Shown one piece after another: positions 1 through 13,873 of a DNA stretch of 13,873 bases (positions within the stretch are counted from its first letter, which is position 1; each line of letters begins with the position of its first letter). This stretch comes from Oligoflexus sp. (lineage in GTDB: Bacteria; Bdellovibrionota_B; Oligoflexia; Oligoflexales; Oligoflexaceae). The notes under the pieces were generated by a model, which saw nothing but the letters and a program-made list of their open reading frames with translations, ran no database searches and was not told where the DNA came from. The stretch lies in NCBI GenBank assembly GCA_041736305.1, contig JBGSTX010000340.1, forward strand, positions 1 through 13,873. Reading direction: 5' to 3'. The position numbers were made by a program, and so were the translations under genes.

Positions 1-259
1 TTGACCCGCCCGAGCAAGAGAGGCAACTCTCAAGCTACGTTACGAGCGAATCAGATAGTTACCCCCGGATGCTTCACCAGTCCTGGGCTCTAAGGCAAGT
101 GGTTAAACAGGAGTAAGGGGATTAGGCCAGTGCTGCTTGCAGGTAAACCGCTCGATAACTTCGGCTAGGTGACCTTTACCCGCGCAAGCGGAGTACCCTG
201 GTGTAAGCCAGGATTGTCTCTCACGAGACGGACAGCCGGGAAAGACCGGCACCTTTTTT
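1..259 (+). ncRNA. HEARO / IscB-type omegaRNA scaffold (5' end and guide lie outside the window; 3' end approximate)
   Basis: Ordered motifs recalled as typical of HEARO/omegaRNA: TTGACC (1-6), CTACGTT (35-41), GGATGC..CCAGTCC..GCTCT (67-91), GGTTAAACAG (101-110), GCCAGTG (126-132), ATAAC..GGCTAGG..CTTTACC (155-180). Pairings visible in the sequence: GAGAG-GCAA-CTCTC (18-31); GTTACGAGCG 39-48 with CGCTCG(A)TAAC 149-159; GCAAGTGG 95-102 with CTGCTTGC 133-140; loop TCACC 74-78 with GGTGA 168-172 (pseudoknot-like); GNRA hairpins at 180-191 and 197-212. Confidence 0.85.
235..259 (+). terminator. Possible intrinsic terminator / omegaRNA 3' end
   Basis: GCCGG-GAAAGA-CCGGC stem (235-250), then ACC and a T6 run (254-259). 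The stem is short and the U-tract is not immediately adjacent. Confidence 0.45.
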
Positions 260-301
260 AGGATGATCTCCGACCTGGGAGATAGATTACTCTCAATTCC
301 T

Positions 302-321
302 CCCACCGATGAATCGGTGGG
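302..321. repeat. Perfect 8-bp inverted repeat; putative TnpA (Y1)-recognised subterminal hairpin
   Basis: CCCACCGA (302-309), loop TGAA, TCGGTGGG (314-321); 20 nt before the ATGAA junction. Confidence 0.75.
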
Positions 322-341
322 TATCCCTTGCGAGGCGGTTT

Positions 342-1325
342 ATGAAACCTAGCACCTGGATTTGGCACGGCGGAGAATTAGTACCTTGGGAAAATGCTAC
401 TGTGCATGTACTCTCTCACGCGCTACACTATGGTACCAGCGTCTTTGAAGGCATACGTTGCTACCCGACCAACCGCGGTCCTAGCTTTTTTCGTCTGCAA
501 GATCACATCGATCGTCTGCTTCAGTCAGCGCACATCTATCGGATGCCCATGACGGTGGGAGCTGAAGAATTGGTCGAAGCTTGCCATACAGTGGTCGCTA
601 AGAACAATCTGACGAACGCTTATATACGTCCCATTATATTTTACGGTTATGGCAGTATGGGCATCCGTCCAACGGCTGCGACCCGTCTCGAGATGGCGGT
701 TGCGGCTTTTGAATGGGGTGCTTATCTCGGCGAAGAAGGCATCGAAAAAGGGATCGATGTCGGCGTTACCTCCTGGCAACGTGCAGCGCCGAATACCCAT
801 CCTCAGCTCGCTAAAGCCGGTGGTAACTATCTAGCTTCGTTCTTTATGGTCGACGAAGCGCGTCGGCATGGTTACACCGAAATGATCGCTCTCACGCATC
901 AAGGATTTCTCAGCGAAGGTCCGGGTGAAAACCTCTTCATTGTGCGGAAGAACAAGATCTACACCCCTTCGATCCACTGCTCTATCCTCGAGGGGCTCAC
1001 GCGCGAAACAGTCATGACTCTAGCGCGCGACATGGGCTACGAAGTCGAAGAAGGTACCTACCCACGCGAGCTTCTATATATAGCCGACGAGCTCTTTTTT
1101 ACGGGTACCGCAGCCGAGATCACTCCGATTCGCAGCGTCGATGGACAAAAAGTAGGGGAAGGTCTTCCCGGTCCTGTGACGAAAGCTCTGCAGCGCGCCT
1201 ATTTTGGTCTTTTTAAAGGCGAAACGATCGACCGCTGGAACTGGCTTACGCCTCTGGCCAAATCATCGTCCGCCCATTCCGGGGATAAGCATGCAAAAAC
1301 AAAAACCCACAAGGACGGTGTTTGA
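342..1325 (+). CDS. ilvE: Branched-chain amino acid aminotransferase (PLP class IV)
   Basis: Motifs [30 protein letters not shown] (PLP lysine), [23 protein letters not shown]. Start placed at ATG 342 ([16 protein letters not shown]), because the 309-341 extension in the ORF track is the mobile-element end. Confidence 0.96.
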
Positions 1326-5226: not shown

Positions 5227-7212
5227 CTACATTAAGGCTTGATTGGGGCAGGGGGAAGAAGAAATGGCGCCATGAGCTATAGGAGGAGGAAGCTGATTCC
5301 TGGCATATCCAACTATTTTCTCGAGCAGTATACCAATACTGAAGGGTTTAGTGAGGTGGTCATTGCACCCGACTTCGAAGGCTCTGACCTTCTCATCTTT
5401 CATCGCCGCGGCGGAAACAGCCAAGATGGGGCGCTGATAGCCACTGGCTCGCAGCTTAGCGGTGGCATCGAATCCATCGAGCAGAGGCATATGCAGATCC
5501 ATCAACACCACATCGAATTCGTGGTCGCGGAGGATTACGACGGCTTCGAGGCCGTTTTCGGCCAGGGCTATGGTAGCTCCGTACTGCGCGAGAATCTGGC
5601 TAGCCAGGGCTCGGCTGTCGGGAGCATCTTCGACGATCAGTACCGAGATGCCCTCGAGCAATCTTTCGTTCTCCAGACCTAGATCTATCGAGCTTGGGGC
5701 ATGAATCAAATCGCGTTGTTCGTTCTCTCCCATGAGGCGCCAGCTTCCTTGGGCGTCGCGAGCTTGGACGGAAACCCGAAAGGTCGAACCAAAGCCGGGA
5801 TTACTGTAAACCAGATCGACCGTCCCACCCAAGAGCTGGGCCAGACGCCGTGAGAGGATCAGACCCAAACCGGTCCCACCGAAATTGCGGGCGACCGAGG
5901 CGTCGGCCTGCGAGAAGGCCATGAAGAGCCGGCTTTGCTGCAGCGGTTCTATACCAGGGCCGGTATCCATCACCGAGAATACGATGTCGATTGGGAGGCC
6001 CCGAGCCGTGCTCTTGCTCGTGATGTTGACGTGAACGCCCCCTTGCTGGGTGAACTTAACGGCGTTACCGACGATATTAATCAAAATCTGCTTGAGACGC
6101 ACAGGGTCGGACATAAACGTTTCGGGTAGTCCAAAATCGGAAGTGACGCGCAGGTAAATGCCCTTGTCGGCGGCTTGCTTGCCGATCAATTTGATGACAT
6201 CGGTGACTATCTCTGGCAGTGAGCAGCGAATATGCTCCACCTCCATCCGGCTAGCTTCTACCTTCGAGAGATCGAGAATATCATCGAGCAGCTGCTGAAG
6301 GAGTTTGCCATTGCGGGTGATCGTTCGAATAAAGTCACGCTGTTTTTCCGGCGAAAGCCGACTATTCTGCACCAGCTCTGCGAAACCCATGATGGCGTTC
6401 AGAGGGGTACGAATCTCGTGACTCATGTTGGCGAGAAACACGCTCTTCGCCTCGTTTGCACGTTCAGCGGACTCTTTGGCTTCCTTAAGTTCTTCTTCGA
6501 CTCGCTTCTTGTCTGTGATGTCCATGGCAATGCCAGCCATGCGAATCGGAAGCTCTGCATCGTCATAGAAGGCTCGCGCCTTCACCAAGCTCCAGCGAAT
6601 TCCGCCATCCGGCGTAACTATGCGAATCTCAATACTGAGATCGTTCTTGTAGGCTAGAGCTTGTTTTGCAGCTTCTTCAATCCGTGGCAAATCTTCAGGC
6701 GGAATTCTACTCTTGAATTCATGTGTTGCTAACTTTTCGGCCTGTCCGGTGCTGCCCGGTGTCCAAATTACCTCACCCGATCCTAAGTCCCAATCCCAGC
6801 TACTGATCTGTGCTACGTCTATTGCGAAGCGAACATTACTTTTTCTCTGCATAGCCTGCTTGAGCATCCGGACGAGTATCCATGACTGCAGATGTTCCAA
6901 GGGTAAAAGGTCAAAACTGAGCTGTGGATCCTTGATAAGATTTTCAACCTGCGACAATTCTGAAGAGCGATACACGAGAAGCAGCGGCGAAGAGGCGATA
7001 CTCCTGAACAAGGCGTAGGCGTCAGCCGGATTCATCTTTAGGAGATTCGCAGTATCCAACAAATAAACAAGATCAGTGCTAGCTTTGTAATTGACGAGGG
7101 CCTGGGGGTTGGGAACATAGACTTGAGCTATACCCTCCTCTTGGAGAAGGGAACTCAGCTCTTGCACAACGCTGGCATCGACGCAGAGGCAAACTCTAAA
7201 AGTTTCGCTCAT
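5227..7212 (-). CDS. Cytoplasmic hybrid sensor histidine kinase (degenerate REC-like - PAS/PAC - HisKA - HATPase - REC)
   Basis: SWDWD...IPPEDL...IRW..KAR..DITDKK (PAS/PAC); H-box FLANMSHEIRTPLN; N-box NIVGNAVKFT; G boxes DTGPGI and GGTGLGL; receiver IVED...LMDLHMP...KPF. No TM segment seen. Start at ATG 7212 preferred (GAGG upstream). Confidence 0.93.
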   Translation of the reverse strand: MSETFRVCLCVDASVVQELSSLLQEEGIAQVYVPNPQALVNYKASTDLVYLLDTANLLKMNPADAYALFRSIASSPLLLVYRSSELSQVENLIKDPQLSFDLLPLEHLQSWILVRMLKQAMQRKSNVRFAIDVAQISSWDWDLGSGEVIWTPGSTGQAEKLATHEFKSRIPPEDLPRIEEAAKQALAYKNDLSIEIRIVTPDGGIRWSLVKARAFYDDAELPIRMAGIAMDITDKKRVEEELKEAKESAERANEAKSVFLANMSHEIRTPLNAIMGFAELVQNSRLSPEKQRDFIRTITRNGKLLQQLLDDILDLSKVEASRMEVEHIRCSLPEIVTDVIKLIGKQAADKGIYLRVTSDFGLPETFMSDPVRLKQILINIVGNAVKFTQQGGVHVNITSKSTARGLPIDIVFSVMDTGPGIEPLQQSRLFMAFSQADASVARNFGGTGLGLILSRRLAQLLGGTVDLVYSNPGFGSTFRVSVQARDAQGSWRLMGENEQRDLIHAPSSIDLGLENERLLEGISVLIVEDAPDSRALASQILAQYGATIALAENGLEAVVILRDHEFDVVLMDLHMPLLDGFDATAKLRASGYQRPILAVSAAAMKDEKVRAFEVGCNDHLTKPFSIGILLEKIVGYARNQLPPPIAHGAISSSPCPNQALM

Positions 7213-7290
7213 CGGTATCCTCAACAGGCGCCGTAAGCTGGCGTTTCAAGGCAGCAAAGGTATCAGTACACATCAGTCAAATTCCTCGGT

Positions 7291-7959: not shown

Positions 7960-7987
7960 AAGTCTGTTGTATTGAAAGGTTGCCTTG

Positions 7988-9823
7988 ATGAACGCGTCTG
8001 CGTCTGCCTCCGCCTCTGCTGCTCAAGATGCTAATGTGAAGCTTCACAAAATTCGTCATTCACTGGCCCATGTTCTGGCCCAAGCGGTACAGTTGAAATA
8101 TCCTGACGTGCAGATGGGCTTCGGGCCGCCGACTGAGCATGGTTTTTACTATGACTTCGATTTCGGTGTGAAAGCTATAGCCGAGTCCGACCTTAAAGAT
8201 ATTGAAAAGCAGATGCGCAAAATCATCGGTGCCGCGCAGTCCTTTGAATATTTTGAATTCGATTATGAGGGAGCCATCAAGTTCCTCGAAGGGCACGGCG
8301 TTGCTCCTTATAAGCTGCAAAATTTGCAGAATCTACGCGAACGAGGCGAGACCAAGTTCACGTTTTACAAGACCGGTCCCTTCTTGGATGTCTGCGAAGG
8401 TCCTCATGTGAACAGCACTCAGCAGCTGCCTGCCGATGCGTTCAAGCTCGATCGGATCGCTGGTGCCTATTGGCTTGGCGATGAAAAGAACAAGATGCTG
8501 ACGCGCATCTACGGCCTTGCGTTTGAGAATCGCCAGCAGCTCGACGACTTCCTCAAACGCCGGCAGATGGCCGAGGAGTTTGACCATAAAAAACTCGGCA
8601 AAGACCTCGATATTTATCATTATGAGGATATTGTCGGCAAAGGTTTGCCGCTCTGGCTGCCCAACGGCACGGTTATCCGTGATGAGATTCAGCGCTATGC
8701 CATGGAGATGGAATTCAAGTATGGCTACAAGCGCGTAGCTACTCCCAATATAGCGAAGGGCGATCTCTACCTGCGCTCGCAGCACTTGCCAGCTTATCGC
8801 GAGTCCATGTTTCCGCCGATGGTGATCGAAGAAGAAGAAAAGAAGACAGAATACTATCTCAAGCCGATGAACTGTCCGCATCATCACTTGATCTACGCTG
8901 CTCGCCGGCGCAGCTATCGCGATCTGCCTCTGCGCCTGGCAGAATACGGGACCTGCTACCGCTACGAGCAGTCGGGCGAAATTTCTGGTCTGATCCGCGT
9001 GCGCTGCATGACGATGAACGATGCGCATATTTACCTGCGCGAGAGCCAGTTCACCGAAGAGTTCAGCAAGCTCCTTAAAATGTACCAGGAGTTCTATGCG
9101 ACCTTCCAACTCAGCGAATACCGCTTCCGGCTCTCCCTGCGCGGGGAGGGGAGTGAGAAATTCCGCGGCGAAGGCGAGATGTGGGACAAGGCGGAGCAGC
9201 TGCTCGAAAAGGCCTTGCAAGATGCTGGCGTCCCTTTTTATCGAGGGGAAGGTGAAGCAGCCTTTTACGGCCCAAAGATCGACATTCAGTTTAGAAACCT
9301 CATGGGTCGAGAAGAGACTGTTTCGACCATCCAGGTCGACTTTCTCAGTCCGGCCAATTTCGATCTCGCCTATGTCGACGAGCAAGGCCAGGATCAAAAG
9401 CCTATCATCATCCACCGCTCGCCGCTCTCGACTCACGAACGCTTTATCAGCTATCTGATCGAATACTACGGCGGGGCTTTTCCCGTCTGGTGCGCTCCCG
9501 TTCAGGTGGTTTTGATTCCCGTCAACGATGCGTGTGCAGCCTACTGCCACGAGTTTCAGGCCGAGCTCCATAGCCAGATGATTCGCGCTGAAGTCGATGA
9601 GTCGGATCACAGCTTCAACAAGAAAATTCGCAGTCATACGATGCGGAAGGTTCCGCTGCTGCTGATCGTAGGGCAAAAGGAACTTGAAGAGCGTAAAGTC
9701 ACTGTCCGCCGCTACGGGATTCAGGAGCAAAAGACGATGGATAAAGCGGAATTTGCGACTGAACTGCTCAGCGAGGCCAAGCAGCGTTTGATGTTCAGAA
9801 AACCGATGGGTGCTTTGATTTAA
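7988..9823 (+). CDS. thrS: Threonine--tRNA ligase, short form lacking the TGS domain
   Basis: Editing motifs RHSLAH, GFYYDF, DVCEGPHV, GAYWLGD; DHKKLG; zinc-site motifs KPMNCP, NDAHI, IIHRS; GEAAFYGPKID; C-terminal anticodon-binding domain. ATG 7988 preferred over TTG 7985. Confidence 0.97.
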   Translation: MNASASASASAAQDANVKLHKIRHSLAHVLAQAVQLKYPDVQMGFGPPTEHGFYYDFDFGVKAIAESDLKDIEKQMRKIIGAAQSFEYFEFDYEGAIKFLEGHGVAPYKLQNLQNLRERGETKFTFYKTGPFLDVCEGPHVNSTQQLPADAFKLDRIAGAYWLGDEKNKMLTRIYGLAFENRQQLDDFLKRRQMAEEFDHKKLGKDLDIYHYEDIVGKGLPLWLPNGTVIRDEIQRYAMEMEFKYGYKRVATPNIAKGDLYLRSQHLPAYRESMFPPMVIEEEEKKTEYYLKPMNCPHHHLIYAARRRSYRDLPLRLAEYGTCYRYEQSGEISGLIRVRCMTMNDAHIYLRESQFTEEFSKLLKMYQEFYATFQLSEYRFRLSLRGEGSEKFRGEGEMWDKAEQLLEKALQDAGVPFYRGEGEAAFYGPKIDIQFRNLMGREETVSTIQVDFLSPANFDLAYVDEQGQDQKPIIIHRSPLSTHERFISYLIEYYGGAFPVWCAPVQVVLIPVNDACAAYCHEFQAELHSQMIRAEVDESDHSFNKKIRSHTMRKVPLLLIVGQKELEERKVTVRRYGIQEQKTMDKAEFATELLSEAKQRLMFRKPMGALI

Positions 9824-10292: not shown

Positions 10293-11630
10293 CTAGCTTT
10301 TACATAAGCTGGCCAGCTCACGCCGATACTTGACGATGTCTATGTTCTGCCGCGCGACTCCTGATGCAATAGCTGCTGCAGCGACTGCCGACGAAACTTC
10401 GACTAGAGCGCGTGGATCATTGGGTTTAGGGATGATATAGCGCCGTCCAAAACTGAGAATGCCTTCTTTTTCATAGACTTTCTGGACCTCCGGCAGAACT
10501 TTCTCCTTAGCCAGTGCAGCGATAGCCACCGCTGCCGCCTTCTTCATTTCTTCATTAATAGTCCGCGCCTGCACATCCAGAGCTCCCCGAAAAATGTAGG
10601 GAAAGCCGAGTACGTTATTAACCTGATTAGGGAAGTCGCTGCGCCCGGTAGCAATAATAACATCGGGGCGAACGCTCAAGGCCAGGTGCGGTGTGATTTC
10701 TGGATCGGGATTGGCGAGGGCGAAGACGATAGGATCGCGAGCCATCGAACGCAGCATGCCGCTACTCATCAGACCGGCAGCGGATACACCGACGAAAACG
10801 TCACTACCCTTCAGTGCCTCTTCGAGCGAACGCAAAGATGTCTGCCGGGCAAAGCGCCGCTTGAATACGTTGAGGTCGGGTCGCTCGCTCTGAATGACTC
10901 CCTTGCTATCGCACATGAGCAGATTCTCAGGGTTCACGCCAGCGGTCAAAAACATCTGGGCACAGGCTATTGCGGCTGCGCCGCCGCCGGAAAATACAAG
11001 TTTAATATCCTCGATTTTCTTTTTAACCAGCTCGAGTGAGTTCAACAGCCCAGCCGTAGCAATAATCGCTGTGCCGTGCTGATCGTCATGAAAGACTGGT
11101 ATCCCCATCTTGGCCTTTAAAGCCTCTTCGATGTGAAAGCACTCAGGAGCTTTGATGTCTTCGAGATTGATTCCACCAAAGGTGGGCTCTAAAGCTGCAA
11201 CCATGCGGATGAAGGCTTCCGTATTGTCTTCGTCGATCTCGAGGTCGAAGGAATCGATGCCGGCGAATTTCTTGAACAGCATCGCCTTGCCTTCCATCAC
11301 GGGTTTCGCGGCATAGGCTCCAATGGAACCCAGACCGAGTACAGCTGTCCCGTTTGAGATTACGGCTACGAGATTTCCACGACCTGTGTAGCGAAACGAG
11401 AGGTCACGATTACCTTCAATCAGGCGACAGGGTCCAGCTACACCCGGTGAATAGGCCATGGCCAAATCCTCGCGCGTGTCGAGGGGCTTCTTGAGATAAG
11501 TCCCAATTTTGCCGCGAGCTTCTCGCTCATGATAAGCAAGAGCGAGATGTTCGTAGTCGATAAGCACGGGGGCTTCTACTGCCTGGGACTTGGGGGACAA
11601 CCTAATCTCTTGAGTCTCCATATTTTTCAT
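10293..11630 (-). CDS. NAD(P)-dependent malic enzyme (MaeB-like catalytic part only, no PTA domain)
   Basis: [73 protein letters not shown]. Start placed at ATG 11630 after a GGGAG SD (445 aa). Confidence 0.93.
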
Positions 11631-11915
11631 CGCAATTTCTCCCTGCTGGGTCTGAGGACGTTTCAGCGCCGGTCGAGCTAAGCTTAATATTCGTAGGCTA
11701 ACATGTGTAACCTGAAGCTCGAGGTATATCTTAAAGAGTAACAAAGGCGAAGATTAATTCCAATACAGCGAATCGAAAGCCTCATTTTTCGCTCAAAGAT
11801 CGTAGCTTTTTCGTTTATTTGGGCTTTTTTGGCAGACAATCCGCATCCCCTTTCATTGCGAAGAAAGCCCCGTAGCGGTAGACTGTAGCGACGTTTAGAG
11901 TCAGGAGGGTCTGTG

Positions 11916-13061
11916 ATGCTTGAAGCTCGTTATGCACGACAGATGATACTCAAGGAAATAGGACAGACAGGCCAAGAAAAGTTGGCTCAGAGCCGCGTAC
12001 TCATCGTGGGTCTCGGAGGACTGGGATCTCCCGCGGCTCTTTATCTCGCAGCGGCGGGCGTCGGTACTTTAGGTCTGCTTGACGATGATCGAGTTGATAT
12101 CACGAATCTACAGCGTCAGGTGTTGTATACCACAGCCGATCAAGGTCATAGCAAAGTTGAGAAAGCCGCACTGCGCCTGCAGGAGCTGAATCCCAATCTA
12201 CGCATCAATATTCATTACGAGCGGCTACACGCCGCCAATGCCATCGTGCTGATTCAAGACTACGATATTATTATCGATGGAACGGATAACTTCGCCAGTA
12301 AGTTTCTCCTCAACGACGTCGCTGTCAAACTTAGAAAGCCTCTCGTCTATGGCTCGATTCTCCGCTGGGAAGGTCAGCTCGCCGTCTTCTGGGCTCCCTA
12401 CGGACCCTGCTATCGCTGCCTCTTCCCGGCGCCGCCCGAACGTCCAGTCGCCAACTGCGCCGAAGCCGGAGTTGTAGGAGCACTGGCGGGTACGGTAGGC
12501 AGTCTGCAGGCCCTTGAAGCTATCAAGCTTATCGTGGCTGGTGCTCCTCCTTATGAAAAGCTGAGCCCCATGCTTGGCCATCTCTGGCTCATCCGCTCGG
12601 CGACGATGGAAACGCAGAGACTCCGCATTCAGCGCAATCCTGCCTGTCCCGTCTGCAGTAAAGCTGCTGATTCTATTTCTATCACCGACCTTCACCACGG
12701 TGAGCAAGCTTGTGGGACTTTACTGAAGAATGCTGCTGCTGCAGGTTTCGAAGAATATGCGGCGGCTGAGCTGCTCGAGAAGAACCGTTGGCAGGATTTT
12801 CAGTGGATAGATGTGCGTGAGATTGAAGAATGGAACGCAGGACACATCCCTGGTGCTAAGCACTGGCCCCTCTCGCAGCTGATGAGTGGGCATATGCCAC
12901 CCGAACTTGAGAGCGAGACTCTGCTCCTCTACTGTCAAGGCGGAAGACGTTCGGCTATGGCGGGTGAGCTGCTGCTCGGTCGTGGTTTCACGCTCAAGGG
13001 GCACATGAAGGATGGCTTTAAAGCTTGGCACGGACCTATCGAAAGGCCGCAGCTCTCTTAG
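11916..13061 (+). CDS. moeB: ThiF/MoeB-family adenylyltransferase fused to a rhodanese domain (MoeZ/MoeBR type)
   Basis: RYARQ, GLGGLG, TNLQRQ, DGTDNF, zinc motifs CYRC and CPVC, NCAEAG; C-terminal rhodanese DVRE..EW..GHIPGA with active loop CQGGRRS; SD AGGAGG at 11903-11908. Confidence 0.92.
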   Translation: MLEARYARQMILKEIGQTGQEKLAQSRVLIVGLGGLGSPAALYLAAAGVGTLGLLDDDRVDITNLQRQVLYTTADQGHSKVEKAALRLQELNPNLRINIHYERLHAANAIVLIQDYDIIIDGTDNFASKFLLNDVAVKLRKPLVYGSILRWEGQLAVFWAPYGPCYRCLFPAPPERPVANCAEAGVVGALAGTVGSLQALEAIKLIVAGAPPYEKLSPMLGHLWLIRSATMETQRLRIQRNPACPVCSKAADSISITDLHHGEQACGTLLKNAAAAGFEEYAAAELLEKNRWQDFQWIDVREIEEWNAGHIPGAKHWPLSQLMSGHMPPELESETLLLYCQGGRRSAMAGELLLGRGFTLKGHMKDGFKAWHGPIERPQLS

Positions 13062-13831
13062 AGTTCGCTCGAATAAATCGGCTGATCAGGATGCGACTTT
13101 GCTTGGGGAACACTGATCGGTTTCAGCCAAGGGCTACTGAGCCAGCCGAGGAAAAAGCCTAATGCCAGACCAATGGCATGGGTGCGGTAGCTGACCTGCG
13201 GCTCGATCTGACTGGGAGCTAGGACGACGAGAATAAAGGCTAGCGTCCGCATGCTCCTCTGTATCCAACTCAAATAGTCGGCATACTTCCAGAAAAGCAG
13301 CAGCCAGAGAGCCGCCATAAGATAAACCATGCCTGAAGCACCGATCAACTTCACCTGTGGGTCATAGGTGCCTAGCGCTAAAGCCGTGGTGAGAATTCCA
13401 CCGAGCAAGCTTAGCGTCGGGAAGGCCCAGGTGCCGAAGTACTGACGAAGAAAGAGACCAAAGACCAGGAAGAGACCGCTGTTAGCTAGGAGATGGGCGA
13501 GGTCTGCGTGCACAAAGAGAGTCGTGAGGAGTCGCCAGTATTCTCCCTTCCCGAAAACATCAGCAGCTCGTGCTGACCAGAGTTCATAACCTGGATATTG
13601 ACCCCAGACCCACATACTGAAGAAGGCGGAGATAAGTAAAAGTGCGAGGGCAGGATAAGCACTTTTGAACTCAAGCTTTTGGCCTAGTGGATGGGAGCTG
13701 ATGTCGAAGCGGTGGATAATATCTTCCGGGGTCTCGCCTCCTGGCATGAAGCTCTGTCGATCGAGAGACCATTGGGCTATGGGCGCAGGGGCGGACGTGC
13801 TAGTAGATTCTTCTCGATCAGCTAAGTTCAT
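13058..13831 (-). CDS. Rhomboid-family intramembrane serine protease
   Basis: YWRLLT, HADLAHLLAN, catalytic GASG and SYRTHAIG, multiple TM segments. ATG 13831 preferred (GGAGG 7 nt upstream); stop overlaps the moeB stop. Confidence 0.92.
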   Translation of the reverse strand: MNLADREESTSTSAPAPIAQWSLDRQSFMPGGETPEDIIHRFDISSHPLGQKLEFKSAYPALALLLISAFFSMWVWGQYPGYELWSARAADVFGKGEYWRLLTTLFVHADLAHLLANSGLFLVFGLFLRQYFGTWAFPTLSLLGGILTTALALGTYDPQVKLIGASGMVYLMAALWLLLFWKYADYLSWIQRSMRTLAFILVVLAPSQIEPQVSYRTHAIGLALGFFLGWLSSPWLKPISVPQAKSHPDQPIYSSEL

Positions 13832-13873
13832 GGCATGGCCTCCAGGCATTACCTTACTAAAATAAAGCGCTTC

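Follow-up and report, generated by a model that had tools for sequence, protein, structure and literature searches.

A protein-less IscB-type element that probably split ilvE after its second codon, with predicted translational restart from a ribosome-binding motif in the element end

The ISC transposons described by Kapitonov et al. (2016, PMC4810608), among them ISC1-1_MA, ISC2-1_HM and ISC2-1_MS with the target N|ATGA, start with 5'-GT(CA), carry subterminal hairpins and insert directly 5' of ATGA without target duplication. The element described here agrees with them in all these respects, but the copy at ilvE has lost iscB. The term 'start codon' does not occur in that paper, and neither a link to gene starts nor an end-encoded Shine-Dalgarno (SD) sequence is mentioned in the part of it available to us. 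For GstIscB of ISGst5, from Geobacillus stearothermophilus, the TAM was measured as TTCAT (Meers et al., 10.1101/2023.03.14.532601, PMC10055086). This is the reverse complement of ATGAA, the motif at our junction, and in both cases the guide comes from outside the element; the TAM of the ilvE element, unlike that of GstIscB, is a prediction. The PATEs of G. stearothermophilus resemble the ilvE copy in being protein-less and often omegaRNA-encoding; co-orientation with upstream genes is a further shared trait of the two systems. Start-codon docking or SD replacement was not found in the accessible sections of that report. With IS608 (He et al. 2011, PMC3201880, as far as its available text goes) the element shares a cleavage motif about 19–20 nt from the left hairpin and a guide tetranucleotide at the hairpin foot; the IS608 target is TTAC instead of TCAT, and IS608 encodes TnpA and TnpB. 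IStrons (10.1101/2023.11.20.567912, in the portion at hand) are likewise of IS200/605 type and cost the host little when they insert in a transcribed gene. They splice from RNA, whereas the ilvE element, which has no intron match, would supply a ribosome-binding site.

Outside the original HEARO paper and the 2021 IscB paper, a literature search returned no report of start-codon docking or of an end-encoded SD, and the main texts of the review PMC13565253 and of PMC9755519 contain no match to 'start codon'. Docking at starts is a recurring habit that has apparently been little described.

The window, that is, the whole 13,873-nt stretch of Oligoflexus sp. DNA that was analysed, is the start of contig C178. 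Its relevant features are as follows.

1–341, plus strand: protein-less ISC (IS200/IS605) element, the 3' 341 nt of 401 nt by sibling comparison
1–179, plus strand: HEARO/omegaRNA scaffold (Rfam RF02033), its 5' part missing at the contig start
235–259, plus strand: GC hairpin and T run, terminator-like; possible omegaRNA 3' end, possible polar element
302–321, no strand assigned: subterminal hairpin (TnpA left-end palindrome, read on the minus strand), from the fold and sibling copies, laid out as in IS608
309–341, plus strand: spurious N-terminal extension MNRWVSLARRF, element DNA
322–325, minus strand: predicted TnpA guide tetranucleotide GL, GATA, matching the cleavage motif TCAT
332–335, plus strand: element-encoded SD core GAGG, 6 nt before ATG 342
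342–346, plus strand: target motif and predicted TAM ATGAA, probably native ilvE codons 3–4 and likely the present-day start
342–1325, plus strand: ilvE, branched-chain amino-acid transaminase, 327 aa, open frame, over cut-off for NF005146 and TIGR01122
1291–4341, plus strand: leuC, leuD and leuB, the operon remainder downstream of the insertion (Pfam Aconitase, Aconitase_C, Iso_dh)

We consider it likely that these features are best explained as a whole by insertion of an IscB-type element inside ilvE, followed by translational restart at Met3 from an SD carried by the element.

The element is of a known kind, an IscB guide-RNA (HEARO) element of the IS200/IS605 ISC group. An Rfam scan of the window gave RF02033 at 85.9 bits (cut-off 83). 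HEARO alone exceeded the Rfam gathering scores there and no group I intron was detected, so that the element is not an IStron. The genome holds 14 HEARO matches. The first 60 nt of the 401-nt element lie on another contig, C80; both ends are visible in the intact copies on C342 and C371, and BLAST revealed four near-complete copies of 93–100% identity. HEARO at the 5' end, subterminal hairpins, a fixed target and the lack of terminal inverted repeats and of target duplication are those of an ISC element, but a full ISC also holds an iscB gene, which the ilvE copy lacks. Since the ORF list has no plus-strand frame of at least 60 aa between the HEARO RNA and the element end, and full elements with the identical last 80 nt in same-genus genomes encode an IscB of 429–431 aa, the ilvE copy is a protein-less derivative rather than a full ISC. 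With both ends kept, no protein gene and several copies, it corresponds to a PATE. A full-length IscB with these ends was not found in its own assembly, which has a 3' IscB fragment with related ends on C109, and also two sister-family IscB and a partial tnpA. At window positions 142, 214 and 230 the letters differ from those of contigs from runs X1, X2 and X4; these are private changes or assembly errors.

The end hairpin at 302–321, CCCACCGA-TGAA-TCGGTGGG, has an 8-bp stem with a folding energy of −9.3 kcal/mol (z −4.9; 0/200 shuffles as good). It is followed after 20 nt (322–341) by ATGAAA at 342–347, as the initial annotation had described. When the first 420 bases were compared by BLAST, siblings matched the window through 346–348 and then diverged, which shows that the junction is real. 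In the same genome, 18 of 19 element ends, in two end families, lie at ATGAA, and the exception, on C284, lies at GTGA; the search patterns had ATGAA built in, and C284 was left out of the 18 junctions considered below. Because of that requirement, the unbiased test of the target came from a metagenome pattern without ATGA: it recovered 22 ends (18 from one assembly, two being the same site), 21 followed by ATGA and one by GTGA. Sibling copies thus end at ATGA, as had been expected. The exact end pattern occurred at one locus in a scan of the genome collection, and a viral scan gave four loci of little use.

In TnpA systems the guide tetranucleotide pairs with the cleavage motif, consistent with TTAC and AAAG of IS608. 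Here the tetranucleotide at the hairpin foot, read on the minus strand, is GA-N-A with TCAT in 18/18 ends. At sister-family ends AATA and AATT covary with the targets TTAT and TTAA (6/6); this second IscB/omegaRNA family, with ATAAA or TTAAA targets, was seen in the same assembly (G000) on contigs C59, C84, C194, C219, C254 and C341. The ilvE copy, being non-autonomous, would have been inserted 5' of ATGA by TnpA acting in trans, with the target chosen by base pairing with the guide tetranucleotide. IscB would also act in trans, and we infer that ATGAA is the TAM of a cognate IscB.

The left flank of the insertion is on a different contig. C80 carries ilvG, ilvM and leuA; at its end the leuA stop is followed by an SD, 5 nt, ATG-TCT (Met-Ser) and then the other end of the element. 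Joining it to C178 rests on synteny, because no assembled contig crosses the whole element here and a second contig, C79, overlaps the window equally well; both end in the 5' part of the element, each with 140 identical bases. C80 is similar to the ilvE loci of relatives and C79 is not. C79 (SD, 6 nt, junction) fits instead a sibling copy on C179, at a lipoprotein start. The C80–C178 join is thus inferred from gene order. In all five same-genus genomes compared, leuA is followed by an SD 4–5 nt upstream of an ilvE that begins Met-Ser-Ile/Val-Lys, and the N-termini align as Met-Ser-x-Lys. As C80 ends with an SD and Met-Ser, its flank would join ATGAAACCT two codons into ilvE. The empty allele therefore probably read Met-Ser and then Met-Lys-Pro, ilvE having been split after codon 2, with ATG 342 as the in-frame codon 3, within an operon of the order ilvG-ilvM-leuA-ilvE-leuCDB.

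This changes part of the initial annotation, in which the element lay between the native ilvE leader and the native ATG, a placement that the ATG-TCT preceding the element on C80 does not support. The annotation also overlooked the SD in the element end and the lack of an IscB gene in this copy. Its reading of ATG 342 as the initiation codon stands for the likely present-day start; the native start it probably was not, given Met-Ser on C80 and in 5/5 relatives. The original ilvE 5' flank is indeed the predicted guide and holds the native SD. It had also been expected that in relatives this flank would contain an SD and run directly into ATGAAA; the SD is there, but the Met-Ser codons intervene. 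The claim that MNRWVSLARRF is transposon end rather than enzyme held fully. We rejected ATG 309 as an ilvE start: it lies inside the end hairpin, the sequence upstream is not SD-like (+3.2 kcal/mol), and the 11-residue extension is absent from ilvE of every relative compared. At this locus, then, the predicted TAM is probably codon 3 of ilvE, now probably serving as its start.

It is improbable that ATG 342 was the main ilvE start before the insertion, either through a shift of this lineage to Met3 or because C79 is the true left flank. The native SD, 5 nt before the upstream ATG, is 11 nt away from Met3, a spacing found at 37 of 1341 host starts tallied (the peak is at 5–10 nt), and could have served Met3; C79 shares the same 140 bases with the window. 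This reading has to meet the conservation of Met-Ser, with its SD, on C80 and in all five relatives, and the dissimilarity of C79 to any ilvE locus among them. A contig from run X2, apparently a close strain, matches ilvE from 341 to 836 with five differences, preceded by 382 letters that are not of the element. This match start fits the empty allele we prefer, because a flank ending in CT predicts 341. Among the public runs searched, no record spans the junction.

With ilvE split after codon 2, the native SD and Met-Ser would remain upstream, forming the omegaRNA guide, and in the filled allele a ribosome that initiates at the old start would make a 15-residue hybrid peptide before it meets a stop. 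The linker of about 16 nt at the other end of the element would supply a new SD. ilvE can probably restart at codon 3 because this end brings its own ribosome-binding motif, and its product is predicted to be two residues shorter. The motif, GAGG at 332–335, forms a duplex of −6.7 kcal/mol with the anti-SD and is partly paired in the local fold (unpaired probability 0.32–0.93). A canonical 16S tail is present in the rRNA of two other genomes (G006 and G119); in the element's own assembly the tail was not found. Among distinct linkers from this genome and relatives, 19/23 reach −4.5 kcal/mol or better, against 0/6 linkers of the sister family (ATAAA/TTAAA) and 16.6% of genomic ATGAA sites, and no shuffle in 1000 had as strong a mean; these statistics overstate the evidence, as the linkers are kin and not independent. 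Linkers otherwise little alike keep a GGAG, GAGG or AGGA core at SD distance. The motif is limited to certain lineages, since in plasmid elements of other phyla an SD core occurs in only 6/15 and an annotated start at the junction in 4/15 (of 54 records, 16 were fetched, and ends were placed by eye in 15).

Docking at gene starts recurs. In our preferred reading, copies build up there because such insertions are tolerated and bring the omegaRNA, in sense orientation, under the control of a host promoter. In the same genome 9/18 junctions open ORFs of at least 97 aa, eight with a family match near the N-terminus; the remaining half open only short ORFs, despite the same SD motif. ATGAA sites at a start or within five codons of one amount to 5.1% of 12,552 others, or to 24% if coding insertions are purged, giving p 7e-8 and p 0.015, respectively. 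This background comes from a rough gene caller, which called 8/18 junctions exact starts and, because it rewards SD motifs, was used for the background only. The enrichment over the purge-only model is modest. Independently of these counts, an SD of −4.5 kcal/mol or better occurs in 7/11 of the 5' flanks (one match, on C31, looks like chance) against 0/12 for the ATAAA family. In relatives, 10/16 junctions open ORFs of at least 100 aa (glyA, ileS, trxB, fic, nfi, pssA, nrdR, kdsA, a polyprenyl synthase and one unnamed gene), as do 4/4 copies in the complete genome G119; in the metagenome set 10/22 open long ORFs, including rplS. ileS, rplS, yidC, kdsA and pssA are usually essential genes.

We put forward, tentatively and at somewhat less than even confidence, that ATGA-targeting IscB elements have evolved an SD in the transposase-end linker, probably more than once. 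Such inserts would be translation-transparent at, or a few codons inside, the starts even of essential genes, with restart at the target ATG and with the host promoter and ribosome-binding site as the guide source, a splicing-free counterpart of IStrons. The ilvE copy would be a natural test of this, since the native ribosome-binding site and start codon were both left behind. If true, it would account for the persistence of a TAM that reads as a start codon and show how the guides of IscB elements can be transcribed without loss of the host gene, a simple mechanism of host tolerance for OMEGA transposons.

A rather unlikely alternative is that the SD-like linker is incidental, either inherited or constrained by the transposase, and that docking follows from the ATGA target, the purge of coding insertions and retention of transcribed copies, ilvE being perhaps weakly expressed or polar-silenced. 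The purge-only expectation from the rough gene caller is already 24%, and retention of well-transcribed copies could add enrichment with no adaptation of the element end; co-orientation of iscB with upstream genes has been described (Meers et al., PMC10055086, in the part available). Beta- and gammaproteobacterial and Bacillota plasmid elements (e.g., L145 and L147) sit at starts without the motif. The alternative accounts less well for the SD core kept by otherwise dissimilar linkers (0/1000 shuffles as strong), for its absence from the ATAAA family of the same genome, and for ileS, rplS, yidC, kdsA and pssA lying intact behind such ends, where some ribosome-binding site is needed.

Polar silencing bears on the terminator-like site at 235–259, which could cut transcription into ilvE. 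The hairpin was not seen in the ends of four IscB-coding relatives, and the T run varies among copies. No sigma-70 promoter was found in window positions 1–600. A biosynthetic gene preceded by several hairpins and a T run, along with a 15-codon peptide that would begin at the old ATG, might also suggest a domesticated attenuator- or riboswitch-like leader of ilvE-leuCDB instead of a passive insertion. We regard this as very improbable and rejected it: the same element sequence, at 93–99% identity, precedes unrelated genes, it is missing at ilvE in relatives and apparently in the X2 strain, and Leu, Ile or Val codons form no run in the peptide. The insertion reading proposed here also carries a caution for annotation, as ORF callers include element DNA in such genes, and an insertion can trim protein N-termini.

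Some further sites were noted. The fic junction in G004 may be a second insertion of the internal type, with an SD and a GTG located four codons upstream. A decayed element end directly precedes the yidC start (L047; G000:C155, near 8000–8155). On a Deinococcus plasmid (L140, NZ_CP092193.1; 560–700 and 2290–2315) parA and parB are separated by an IscB element, a single copy whose ends were set by eye. Where an ATGA stop/start overlap would have stood, parA takes a TAA stop from the inferred first bases of the element, and parB receives an SD from the other end; parA and parB would be unchanged. On the Polaromonas plasmid NC_007950.1 (L145:2325–2335) the iscB stop at the junction shares bases with the ATG of the annotated gene that follows, and translational coupling could there replace the SD. 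Farther along the window, translations judged by eye suggest a hybrid histidine kinase (5227–7224), threonyl-tRNA synthetase (7985–9823), malic enzyme (10293–11744), a MoeB-rhodanese fusion (11913–13061) and a rhomboid protease (13058–13849). Lastly, leuA on C80 (L041:216–1430) is a short 404-aa form whose match stops after the first 390 of the 516 model positions and which seems to be without its C-terminal regulatory domain.
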